From IMG/VR virus record IMGVR_UViG_2651869782_000020: a stretch of 5,148 bases of DNA; one strand, given 5' to 3'. Below, one piece after another: positions 2,008-5,148 of this stretch (its first letter is position 1; each line of letters begins with the position of its first letter). This DNA is from a virus. Its lineage: Duplodnaviria > Heunggongvirae > Uroviricota > Caudoviricetes. A model generated the notes under the pieces. That model worked only from the letters and a program-made list of their open reading frames with translations. It was not told the DNA's origin and made no database searches. Made by a program: the position numbers and the translations under genes.

Positions 2008-2164
2008 AGCTTCAGCCCCTTGTATCCGTTAAATGATTCAGCAACAATCATCACCCACCACGCGCGTAATCTCACCCCTGCGCTATTCTCCCGCCACGGC
2101 GACAACAAAAAGCAGTAACCCCCTCCGCACGCACATGCGACCATGCCGCACAGGGAGGGAACAG
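2008..2164. promoter_or_regulatory. Divergent intergenic region between FI (minus) and D (plus); presumed to carry promoters for both
   Basis: 157-bp non-coding gap flanked by two divergently oriented start codons, each with its own RBS. No perfect TGT-N12-ACA late-promoter dyad was found by eye, and no promoter was confidently mapped. Confidence 0.3.
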
Positions 2165-3274
2165 ATGACCGACACCACCATGCAATTGCTCAGTCAGGGC
2201 ACAGACCCCGTGAAAATGCCGGATTTTGATATTCTCGCCGAGGGTAAAACGCTGTCCGGCGTGGCAGAACGCCTGATGAGCCTGTCACTGACCGACAACC
2301 GGGGATTTGAGGCGGACCAGCTCACCATCACGCTGGATGATGCCGATGACCAGTTGCAGCTACCGCCACGGGGCGCGCGTCTGACGGTTCTCATTGGCTG
2401 GAAAGGGGAACCGCTGACAGAAAAAGGCACTTACATTGTTGATGAAATCGCTCACGAAGGACCGCCGGACAGGCTGACTGTTTCAGCCAGAAGCGCAGAT
2501 TTTCGGGATGAATTTAATGTTAAACGTGAGGCGTCCTGGCATGATGTGACCGTTGAACGTGTGGTATCCGCCATCGCTCATCGGTACAGCCTGAAACCGC
2601 AAATCAGCGAAATGCTGATGGATATCGAAATCGACCACGCCGACCAGACTGAAGAAAGCGACATGTCCTTCCTTACGCGCATGGCGGAAATGCTGGGCGC
2701 AATCACCACGGTAAAAAGCGGTAATCTGTTATTCATCATGCCCGGCGGTGGCGTGAACGCACAGGGCCAGCCGTTGCCATCGTTCGCCATCACACGCAGC
2801 AGCGGCGATCGCCATCAGTTCCGCATTGCTGACCGCGAGGCGTATACGGGGGTACGCGCTTACTGGCTTGATCTTAATTACGGGAAAAAGAAAAAAGTCA
2901 GCGTGAAACGCCGCAAACCGCCAAAACCCAAAAAGGAGAAAAGCAGCAGCCGTGAAGGTGATTATATGGAAGGCGCGGAAGGCAATGTGTTTGTGTTACG
3001 CAAGACTTATCAGAACGAGCAGGCAGCAAGACGCGCAGCGGCGGCAAAGTGGCAGCAGCTACAACGCGGAGCCGCATTATTTTCCATCACGCTGGTGCGT
3101 GGACGTGCAGAACTCTACCCCGAAATGCATGGCACGGTAACAGGATTTAAAAGCGAGATTGATAATCAGGACTGGATTATTGCGAAAGCCGAGCACACCA
3201 TTGATAACAGCGGCTTTACCACACAGCTTGAGCTTGAGGCAAAAATCCCGGAATGGATAGCAGAAACAGAGTGA
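2165..3274 (+). CDS. D: Phage late control gene D protein / tail protein gpD (P2 D-like)
   Basis: Long plus-strand ORF. The preferred start is the ATG at 2165 (MTDTTMQLL...), which has a strong GGGAGGG RBS 5 nt upstream; the upstream in-frame ATGs at 2033 and 2135 lack an RBS. Length (369 aa) and sequence character fit the gpD family, and it sits directly upstream of ogr as D does in P2. It contains an unusual Lys-rich tract (KKKKVSVKRRKPPKPKKEK). Confidence 0.85.
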   Translation: MTDTTMQLLSQGTDPVKMPDFDILAEGKTLSGVAERLMSLSLTDNRGFEADQLTITLDDADDQLQLPPRGARLTVLIGWKGEPLTEKGTYIVDEIAHEGPPDRLTVSARSADFRDEFNVKREASWHDVTVERVVSAIAHRYSLKPQISEMLMDIEIDHADQTEESDMSFLTRMAEMLGAITTVKSGNLLFIMPGGGVNAQGQPLPSFAITRSSGDRHQFRIADREAYTGVRAYWLDLNYGKKKKVSVKRRKPPKPKKEKSSSREGDYMEGAEGNVFVLRKTYQNEQAARRAAAAKWQQLQRGAALFSITLVRGRAELYPEMHGTVTGFKSEIDNQDWIIAKAEHTIDNSGFTTQLELEAKIPEWIAETE

Positions 3275-3341
3275 GCAACTTAGACATATTAGCTCAAACT
3301 TAAACTGGCAAGTTTACAGTATAGAATTAAACATAAACGAC

Positions 3342-3370
3342 GGTCCGCTCCGTGTCAGAAGCGGACTTTG
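3342..3370. terminator. Putative bidirectional intrinsic terminator between convergent D and the cargo ORF
   Basis: Perfect 7-bp stem GTCCGCT (3343-3349) / AGCGGAC (3360-3366) with a 10-nt loop, followed on the plus strand by TTTG and on the minus strand by a T-rich run (cgtcgTTTaTgTTTaaTT). It lies between the D stop (3274) and the cargo ORF stop (3395). Confidence 0.35.
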
Positions 3371-3394
3371 TCATCCCTATGTAAGGTTGATTGC

Positions 3395-4417
3395 TTAATA
3401 CGCATTTAATTTAAATTTGTATTTGCCTTCTATGTAATGGATAAATTCAATTATGCTTTTTTCTATCGCATCTAATATATGAATATATCCATCCCGATTT
3501 AAGGTCCTATCCAACTCAAAGTGATGAACTATCCCATGTCTATATTGTATGATTTCAGAAATTCGATTCTCAAGAAAATCAACTGATTTTCCAATTCTTT
3601 TTTTCTTATAAAGAATCGCTCTCACATCTATATCCAGCCACTCTTTATATGCTTTGTTTAGGTGGGTTAAGTTTTGAAAAGTGTAATTTCTTGCAATAAC
3701 ACTTTCTATTGAAATATTTCCTTTCTCTATCTCAAGCAGAATATCAAAATCAACTTTTTGCTTATACGATGTTCTTTTTGCTATTGCGAAAGGATCGTAC
3801 TTTATAAGTATTTGAAAAGCTCTAGAGAAAAAGTATTCAAACATAGCAACCGCAAAAGGTACTAATCCATTATATATAACTCTACTGGGATCCATACATT
3901 GCATGTAATCAAAGTATTCGGATAAACCGCCATCTTCCGGTAGGTTTAATTTAATAGAAGGTTCAGGTAAGGCATGTTTAACAGCGGAAATCTCATGATG
4001 GACATGATTAAATATTGAAGAAATGCCACGACTGATCGGACTACTAGAATCCTTCCATAGAGGAGCGTACCTATTTTTCCCATAATCACCTATAAGTGTT
4101 CCACCAAAAAGACTCCTTGCGCCTTTTAGAACATCATTAAGCATTTTTACATCATGCCAACTAGCGCTATATAAATTACGCACATGCAATGCCCATTTAT
4201 TACCAGATATGTGTAATTCGTCATTTGAAACAGGATATATATCAGCCGAAACTCCATCTGTAGATTTGAAGTCCGTATCATCAAACCAAGAGTAATTCAA
4301 CGTTCCTTGGGGCCATTCCCTCAAATGTTTACACCTTTTAAAACCTAAATTTTCAAGGTAATTTTTAAGTTCGTTTCTAGTTGCTTTTTTAGGGTACAGC
4401 GTTATATCTCTTCCCAT
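3395..4417 (-). CDS. Hypothetical 340-aa cargo protein; candidate abortive-infection/defence protein with a C-terminal R-x4-H (HEPN-like) motif
   Basis: An uninterrupted 341-codon ORF in about 25-30% G+C DNA is very unlikely by chance. AGGTGA RBS lies upstream of the ATG (reverse complement of 4415-4417). The RHGIVHH motif was verified at nt 3521-3541 (reverse complement agacatgggatagttcatcac). No resemblance to P2 structural proteins. Confidence 0.8.
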   Translation of the reverse strand: MGRDITLYPKKATRNELKNYLENLGFKRCKHLREWPQGTLNYSWFDDTDFKSTDGVSADIYPVSNDELHISGNKWALHVRNLYSASWHDVKMLNDVLKGARSLFGGTLIGDYGKNRYAPLWKDSSSPISRGISSIFNHVHHEISAVKHALPEPSIKLNLPEDGGLSEYFDYMQCMDPSRVIYNGLVPFAVAMFEYFFSRAFQILIKYDPFAIAKRTSYKQKVDFDILLEIEKGNISIESVIARNYTFQNLTHLNKAYKEWLDIDVRAILYKKKRIGKSVDFLENRISEIIQYRHGIVHHFELDRTLNRDGYIHILDAIEKSIIEFIHYIEGKYKFKLNAY

Positions 4418-4549
4418 GCTTTATTCACCTGATATACAATATTTTAAATTTTAACTATTATGAACGTATGAATTTTCACATTGGATGTATGGAAGTTCAA
4501 CAACTATTGAAAGTTCAATTTTCACTCTTCGCACAGAGCGAGCTGTTAG

Positions 4550-4578
4550 TTGGAATTAGGGATCGTACAATCTAGAAT
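4550..4578 (+). promoter_or_regulatory. Putative sigma70 promoter for ogr (TTGGAA -35, 17-nt spacer, TAGAAT -10)
   Basis: -35-like TTGGAA at 4550-4555, a 17-nt spacer, and -10-like TAGAAT at 4573-4578, about 30 nt upstream of the ogr ATG. An AAGGGAGG RBS lies at 4596-4603. Confidence 0.35.
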
Positions 4579-4608
4579 AGCGGCAACACCACGTTAAGGG
4601 AGGTCGCT

Positions 4609-4869
4609 ATGTTCCGTTGTCCGCTTTGTGGCGCATCTGCCCGTATCCGCACAAGTCGTCCGGAAAATGATTCAAACACCGTGCGGCAAAAGTATTACCA
4701 GTGTAACAATCTGGAATGCGGCGTATGCTTCTCAACACTGGAAGCTTTCCATAAATTCACATCGAAACACGCCTCCGGCGTTCACTCTTCAGAAGGTATC
4801 CCGTGGCATGAGCTACCAGCTTCACACAGGGGAAACAATCAGATGAGTTTGCCTTTACCTCAGAATTAA
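4609..4869 (+). CDS. ogr: Ogr/Delta-family zinc-finger late transcription activator
   Basis: 86-aa ORF beginning MFRCPLCGASARIRTSR, with a C-x2-C ... C-x4-C arrangement (C4, C7, C32, C37), the same Cys4 layout as P2 Ogr (MFHCPLC...CQNVNC, as I recall it). Strong AAGGGAGG RBS. It sits downstream of D as in P2 and 186. Confidence 0.85.
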   Translation: MFRCPLCGASARIRTSRPENDSNTVRQKYYQCNNLECGVCFSTLEAFHKFTSKHASGVHSSEGIPWHELPASHRGNNQMSLPLPQN

Positions 4870-5148
4870 CAAGCAGAATTGCCGGAGTAACAAAAAAGCG
4901 ATAGATTACGCGCGGGTGCCTTTCGGCTGATGGTCGGAGGGAATACCCGAAGGCCAGATGTGGAAAGGCCCCGGAAAACACTTTTGTTTAACCGAGGCCC
5001 TAACCGTCTACCCTAAGCAAGTGAAAGGTTAGCGCCTCTCCGGAAAAGGAGCAAGTGCTTGTATGGGTCCACCACATATTGCAATTTTTATTCTCTTTTA
5101 AAATATATTCCACGGGCGTCATTAGTGCGAGCGCCTTGTGGGGTCTTT

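Follow-up and report, generated by a model that had tools for sequence, protein, structure and literature searches.

A long-form Ogr/Delta-family protein as the probable late-gene activator of a P88-like prophage

The 5,148-nucleotide stretch of Caudoviricetes DNA analysed here (IMG/VR record IMGVR_UViG_2651869782_000020; hereafter the window) corresponds to the right arm of a P88-like prophage of E. coli, and the gene at 4609-4869 on its plus strand very probably encodes the late-gene activator of this P2-family phage (Peduoviridae; Xuanwuvirus/Gemsvirus type), as a representative of the long-form branch of the Ogr/Delta family. The open reading frame comprises 86 codons plus a stop and is found in the ORF list with exactly the sequence quoted in the initial annotation, which had recognized it as an Ogr homologue. 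This identification is upheld by a passed Pfam model, by four conserved cysteines and by the position of the gene downstream of gpD, where the late tail genes end. The protein reaches 52.4 bits against the Ogr_Delta model (PF04606; cut-off 26.3, E 5e-14) with a match over aa 3-49 that covers 45 of the 47 profile positions, so that 4609-4869 is not a chance ORF, and it also matches PHROG 603, a 'transcriptional regulator' family (E 4e-15). The equivalog model of P2 Ogr (NCBIfam NF007241 / PRK09678) was missed, with 44.5 bits against a cut-off of 116 and an alignment confined to aa 1-61 of the protein and profile positions 1-58 of 72. The protein is a member of the Ogr/Delta family, but not a P2-Ogr equivalog.

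The conserved part of the protein is its zinc-ribbon core (aa 3-49; 4615-4755, plus strand), delimited by the Pfam envelope and by alignments, in which C4, C7, C32 and C37 form a CX2CX24CX4C arrangement followed by a short helix. These four cysteines are invariant in both multiple alignments built with MAFFT, which bears out the retained Cys4 core described in the initial annotation, and an extra cysteine is present at position 40. Across P2 Ogr, 186 B, PSP3 Pag, P4 Delta and the relatives of the window protein, the invariant residues are M1, C4, P5, C7, R14-T15-S16, C32, C37, F41 and T43, and an N-terminal signature, MFxCPxC...RTSR...YxQC...C..F.T, is common to the proven activators and the 86-aa protein. 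When aligned over its whole length with Ogr, 186 B, PSP3 Pag and P4 Delta, the protein is 27-38% identical to them. BLASTP against P2 Ogr aligns aa 1-53 with 42% identity (E 2e-14) and nothing further along. A PDB sequence search with the 86-aa protein returned spurious C2H2 zinc-finger matches only and no structure of the family. Upstream of the gene, a Shine-Dalgarno sequence read from the DNA, AAGGGAGG (4596-4603, plus strand), ends 5 nt before the ATG and is kept in P88 and in a second E. coli prophage, L009. A consensus scan also returned a candidate σ70 promoter for the gene, TTGGAA-17-TAGAAT (4550-4578, plus strand; 9/12 matches), of which only the -10 (TAGAAT) falls in a stretch that P88 also has; this promoter call is weak, since the -35 falls inside an inserted cassette.

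The gene is ordinary and already known. Escherichia phages 500465-2 (Gemsvirus), Chuche and PhiR44_2 and Citrobacter phage ΦSM all encode exactly this protein, the copy of P88 (Xuanwuvirus) is 98.8% identical, two further phages carry copies at 93-94%, and RefSeq holds the same protein as WP_000488107.1, 'ogr/Delta-like zinc finger family protein', annotated in E. coli 503025. Its 90%-identity cluster contains 566 sequences, and 65 complete E. coli genomes contain at least 80% of the window. A profile search yielded 117 clusters, and full-length relatives of 79-99 aa were present in Escherichia, Salmonella, Klebsiella, Enterobacter, Kosakonia, Citrobacter, Serratia, Pantoea, Pectobacterium, Brenneria, Erwinia, Edwardsiella and Symbiopectobacterium, while an exhaustive HMMER scan of 1.8 billion representative proteins found many proteins of 79-98 aa that are 35-59% identical and align up to query residue 81-83. 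Among phage records, the whole protein is matched in 48 of 168 (~29%), and the others (P2, Wφ, PSP3 and P2-like phages of Yersinia and Salmonella) match aa 1-53 only. Ogr homologues of 82 aa, 34-39% identical to P2 Ogr, have been described in Burkholderia phages KS5 (gp8) and KL3 (gp9) (PMC3091744). Given the abundance of 79-99-aa relatives and these published homologues, 86 aa is a normal length for the family. The comparison with the 72 aa of P2 Ogr, which the record NC_001895 confirms, had led to the protein being described as divergent and extended; this is correct relative to P2, but within a large annotated subfamily of 79-99 aa, which counts identical copies in several phages and in hundreds of E. 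coli genomes, both its length and its sequence are typical.

Several irregularities were seen in how the gene is recorded elsewhere. The ogr homologue was left unannotated in the GenBank/RefSeq entries of P88 (34476-34733) and Klebsiella phage 3LV2017 (2501-2746), with the ORF intact in both. Some E. coli copies have no stop codon and read through into '...LSELTGRIAGVTKKR', which yields 97-aa variants (P0003, P0007), and many other database entries of ogr-like proteins are truncated fragments, some of them labelled 'prophage remnant'.

The protein is indeed 14 aa longer than P2 Ogr, but the initial placement of this excess in a longer C-terminal tail holds for three residues only. Two of the extra residues lie in the zinc loop (CX2CX24CX4C vs CX2CX22CX4C, the latter being the published spacing of P2 Ogr; PMC3931495), about 9-11 form a linker insertion after the post-finger helix ('...FTSKHASGVHSSEG', '...FTSK'), and three (PQN) stand at the extreme C-terminal end. 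Judged by these alignments, the extra length is mostly internal and no simple C-terminal add-on. The loop spacing of 24 residues occurs in 31 of 63 long-form homologues, about half of them, and the linker (aa 54-63) is variable and gapped among long-form proteins. The first MAFFT alignment matched the tail 'P-A-S-H-R-G-N-N-Q-M-S-L-P-L' to the ends of Ogr, B and Pag ('RPHPLPSGQQIMWM', 'PPHPTVGGQRPLWL') and put Q78 opposite the Q of '...GQQIMWM' in the P2, 186 and PSP3 proteins; a second, larger alignment placed the short tails of Ogr, B and Pag earlier and did not reproduce this correspondence, which is tentative for that reason.

The tail itself is, by comparison of homologues, conserved rather than degenerate in the long-form branch. 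Its motif IPWHELPASHRGNNQMSLPL (aa 64-83; 4798-4857, plus strand) was defined from 63 full-length long-form homologues together with the window protein and can be written as [IVM]P-x4-[FL]P-x-SH-x-G-x2-Q-[LIM]-x-L. Among these sequences S72 and H73 are conserved in 98%, G75 in 97%, L81 in 86% and I64 in 84%; P65, P70 and Q78 reach 100% in the same 64 sequences, values which are partly circular because the regular expression used to choose the long-form set demanded both prolines and the glutamine. The motif is also visible in unselected representatives that are 35-47% identical, and the proteins of the Klebsiella and Enterobacter phages carry it as 'FIPxDAFPASHYGxxQLxL'. An AF2 model built from an 11-sequence alignment is of modest to low confidence (mean pLDDT 62.9) and places β-strands at residues 10-13, 30-32 and 39-43, a helix at 44-54, disorder at 54-60 and a short strand at 77-81. 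Since this low-confidence model gives residues 77-81 as a β-strand, our best guess is that the tail motif would stabilise the small fold or a dimer. Taken together, the loop insertion, the linker insertion and the conserved C-terminal motif are best read from the alignments as a trait of the subfamily, and not as an oddity of this locus.

The neighbourhood of the gene is that of a P2-type late region with a rearranged tail operon. The window carries, on the minus strand, a tube gene (311-823; Pfam Phage_tube) and the tail sheath gene (823-2007; Pfam Phage_sheath domains, PHROG 23), the first gene of a leftward tail operon presumed to depend on the activator, and, on the plus strand and divergent from the sheath, the tail gene gpD (2165-3274; Pfam Phage_GPD, PHROG 52). 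All of FI-FII-E-T-U-D-ogr lies on one strand in P2, 186 and PSP3; sheath and tube are inverted relative to gpD in the window, as is the entire sheath-tube-E-T-U block in the complete P88 genome (P88 27600-34433), and between sheath and D this leaves a divergent intergenic region of 157 bp. The layout of sheath (minus), D (plus) and ogr (plus) was found in five Peduoviridae genera, each time with a long-form ogr, and was seen in P88, 500465-2, Klebsiella phage 3LV2017 (Reginaelenavirus), ST16-OXA48phi5.4 (Reipivirus) and Enterobacter phage phiT5282H (Novemvirus). The order D then ogr is that of P2, 186 and PSP3; the two genes are directly adjacent in P88 and separated by a 1.28-kb cassette in the window. 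Scans of the window for tRNAs and Rfam families found no RNA genes.

The extent of gpD deserves a comment. The mechanical ORF begins at 2033 (413 aa) and would span the sheath/D promoter region in its entirety; this long form is the one given in the RefSeq record of phage 500465-2, and in some E. coli genomes gpD is annotated as two pieces, a shorter CDS named 'VgrG/Pvc8 family' and a pseudogene fragment. Homology to the gpD family begins only at aa 43-45 of the 413-aa ORF (the PHROG 52 alignment starts at aa 43), and a GGGAGGG ribosome-binding site with an ATG lies at 2153-2167, the ATG being at 2165. On account of this late onset of homology and of the GGGAGGG-ATG, the real start of gpD is probably 2165.

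The cassette between gpD and ogr (3289-4572, relative to P88) is AT-rich, with a GC content of 0.30-0.39 against 0.51-0.59 in the backbone, and its junctions lie in a short near-repeat, CTTAGA / TCTAGA. It holds one 340-aa ORF from the ORF list (3395-4417, minus strand), in which a RiboL-PSP HEPN domain scores below threshold and for which PHROG, PADLOC and NCBIfam gave no match; PADLOC likewise returned nothing for the ogr-like protein. Homologues of this ORF, all named 'hypothetical', keep a steady 338-347 aa and occur, at 64-87% identity, in distant Gammaproteobacteria (Pantoea, Proteus, Shewanella, Aeromonas, Pseudomonas, Methylococcaceae and Halochromatium). Going by these homologues, the cassette looks like a mobile single-gene module with a candidate HEPN RNase gene for defence or abortive infection. 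The slot between gpD and ogr (3275-4608 in the window) is variable: it is occupied by the HEPN-like gene here, by a different hypothetical gene of 384 aa in the related prophage next to ihfA of E. coli AH19B041 (L009 4128-5619), and is empty in P88 (34434-34475), and it may be a hotspot for accessory or defence genes in P88-like phages. On the other side of ogr, the leader of a hok/mok-type toxin locus lies downstream of 4609-4869. Homology to the usual ogr-hok prophage arrangement ends at 5062, and the hok/mokW-like CDS of the relatives begins at ~5060 in window coordinates; the stretch 5063-5148 matches prophages, such as that of E. coli AH19B041, in which an IS481-family transposase gene separates ogr from hok, and the toxin locus is on this ground taken to be interrupted in the window by an IS481-family element at 5063.

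A candidate activator binding site was located between the divergent sheath and D genes, at 2086-2107 (minus strand, centre ~2095.5), D being its presumed second target. It reads TGTTGT-CGCCGTGGCGGG-AGAA, with the core TTGT-N12-AGAA, and is the sole match of the type TGTTGT-N12-AGAA within the window. The P88 genome contains exactly two perfect TGTTGT-N12-AGAA matches, one at the divergent sheath/D region and one at the divergent terminase/scaffold region, the counterpart of P2 pP/pO. Footprinting of the site by comparison over five loci from four genera showed that TTTTTGTTGT-N12-A[C/G]A is kept at sheath/D in P88, L009, Klebsiella phage 3LV2017 and Enterobacter phage phiT5282H, and 3LV2017 has a perfect TGT-N12-ACA, the published consensus of Ogr-type activators (PMC3931495). 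The right half-site is AGA and not ACA in the E. coli phages, and CCA in P2 and 186, where the annotated sites (P2 pP/pO, P2 pF, 186 p12/pV and 186 pJ) read (T/G)GTTGT-N12-CCA. A search for the exact TGT-N12-ACA found none in the window and none at the late promoters of P88. A changed operator was considered as the reading of this blank and dropped, for the exact pattern also misses the annotated B-protein sites of 186 and is thus too strict; the usable form derived from the annotated P2 and 186 sites is TTGT-N12-(A/C)CA.

The position of the candidate site also resembles that of a P2-type operator. Ogr is described as a protein that binds late promoters at inverted repeats whose centre is near -55 and that needs the α subunit of RNA polymerase (PMC3152322). 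At P2 pP/pO the site is centred at 3072, with start sites at 3016 and 3127. The window site has a comparable geometry, its centre being 88 bp away from the start codon of the sheath gene and 70 bp away from that of D. By this analogy we infer that the window site would stand at roughly -55 of each divergent promoter, as at P2 pP/pO and 186 p12/pV. A convincing -10 element was not found on the D side of the window, where transcription starting at ~2151 would leave D a leader of only ~14 nt. No third activator site was found in P88 for a baseplate operon; the matches with one mismatch and the other two TTTTGTTGT matches, considered as further late promoters of P88, lie inside genes or at non-late positions and were taken as chance.

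These elements suggest the following mechanism. The zinc-ribbon protein would bind the TTGT-N12-A(C/G)AA site, and a single activator site between sheath and D would drive both divergent promoters; from about -55, the bound activator would recruit host RNA polymerase through the C-terminal domain of α, and this recruitment would switch on the tail and head operons. Membership in the family, the Cys4 core, the position after gpD and the P2-type dyads at both divergent late regions are the observed supports of this proposal, and the counterpoint is the P2-Ogr equivalog score, far under its cut-off. Phage ΦSM, with an identical protein, is released spontaneously and forms plaques (PMC6456863), and P88, with a nearly identical one, is inducible (PMC5285337).

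The initial annotation had offered a different reading of the divergence, namely that the extended C-terminus makes the contact with RNA polymerase α and that its divergence could alter promoter or host specificity relative to P2 Ogr. The failure of BLASTP to align anything beyond aa 53 with P2 Ogr, the conservation of the tail motif in the long-form clade, which makes a function of the tail probable, the AGA right half-site of the E. coli phages in place of the CCA of P2 and 186, and a leucine (Leu44) at the position of P2 Tyr42 could all be quoted in its favour. Nevertheless, the type, spacing and position of the candidate operator are as in P2, 186 and P4, and because the P2-type site is kept in related phages, in one of them with the perfect consensus, promoter specificity looks conserved rather than altered; the hosts, E. 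coli and Citrobacter, offer the same RNA polymerase that P2 uses, and nothing points to a change of host specificity. The contact attributed to the C-terminal part of Ogr/Delta activators appears to be a misreading of the literature: in the passage of PMC3152322 that cites Wood et al. 1997, the contact is placed on the C terminus of α and is not said to involve the C terminus of Ogr, and a text search of the literature on the carboxy terminus of the Ogr protein found nothing. Suppressors of rpoA109 (L290H) map to the ogr gene (PMC11434276). At the position aligned with P2 Tyr42, 186 B has Met, Pag has Phe and the C-terminal half of Delta has Leu, so the residue there is already variable among proven activators. 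A 1992 study by King et al. is said to have located the rpoA109 suppressors at precisely this Tyr42 of Ogr, next to the zinc finger, and truncation of the Ogr C-terminus reportedly did not abolish or affect activity in work by Gebhardt et al. from 1993 (J Bacteriol 175:7724). An altered specificity is for these reasons improbable.

It could also be asked whether the gene is active at all, or does the work of an activator. An IS481-family element just downstream, at 5063, a foreign AT-rich cassette that parts the gene from D and replaces the would-be -35 sequence of P88, and the many truncated database copies, some called 'prophage remnant', would fit a silent remnant in a decaying prophage. 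Yet the ORF and its ribosome-binding site are intact, the neighbouring tail genes are intact full-length ORFs, and 65 complete E. coli genomes preserve the order D-cassette-ogr with 97.8-99.9% identity; as the ORF is identical to that of plaque-forming ΦSM, and to those of 500465-2, Chuche and PhiR44_2, and near-identical to that of inducible P88, a dead remnant is very unlikely. Least credible of all is a zinc-ribbon protein that merely resembles Ogr and has another job, such as Lar-like restriction alleviation or repression. The Lar restriction-alleviation model TIGR03655 (16.7 bits against a cut-off of 39.6) and other zinc ribbons do respond to the protein, but below threshold, and Ogr_Delta is the sole family model above it; moreover, the N-terminal signature is that of the proven activators, the gene is syntenic with ogr, B and pag, and the P88 annotation showed no other Ogr-family gene that could act as late activator.

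Set beside the known systems, the window protein shares with P2 Ogr, 186 B and PSP3 Pag (72 aa each) the Pfam family, the Cys4 zinc ribbon, the N-terminal signature, the post-finger helix, a gene downstream of gpD and a candidate operator with TTGT-N12 spacing between divergent late promoters. It differs from P2 Ogr in its greater length and in its tail, IP-x4-LP-x-SHRG-x2-Q-x2-L vs 'PHPLPSGQQIMWM' in P2, and the P88-like phages differ from P2, 186 and PSP3 in the inverted sheath-to-U block, which leaves D and ogr divergent from the sheath. The C-terminal repeat of P4 Delta (166 aa) aligns with the window protein over its whole length, longer linker and tail included (30% over 81 aa), and has the same leucine at position 42; unlike the window protein, Delta is a satellite-encoded tandem fusion of two Ogr-like units and lacks the SH-x-G-x2-Q motif. 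The nearest counterparts are the long-form proteins of other Peduoviridae, 98.8-100% identical in P88, 500465-2 and ΦSM and 45-48% identical, with the same tail motif, in the Klebsiella and Enterobacter phages, whose versions differ in being 82-83 aa long and in having the P2-type Cys spacing of 22 residues; no experimental characterisation of these long-form Ogr/Delta proteins was found in the literature. Burkholderia KS5 gp8 and KL3 gp9 resemble the window protein in exceeding 72 aa and in their low identity to P2 Ogr, a likeness taken from the published description (PMC3091744), but they belong to another host group and their gene is not adjacent to gpD.

In all phages checked, the tail motif is found where the tail operon is inverted and the sheath/D late promoter region is bidirectional. 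It is conceivable, though we regard it as rather unlikely, that the motif is a functional module absent from P2 Ogr, which could be a dimerisation strand or a second contact with RNA polymerase, and that long-form activators may differ somewhat from the P2 paradigm, e.g., in having to activate both directions from a single site. It is safe to annotate 4609-4869 as the Ogr-family late-activator gene of a P88-like prophage, and the late region ends with this gene on its right side. The textbook Ogr of 72 aa represents only one branch of the family, and the long-form branch has a conserved tail motif of its own.
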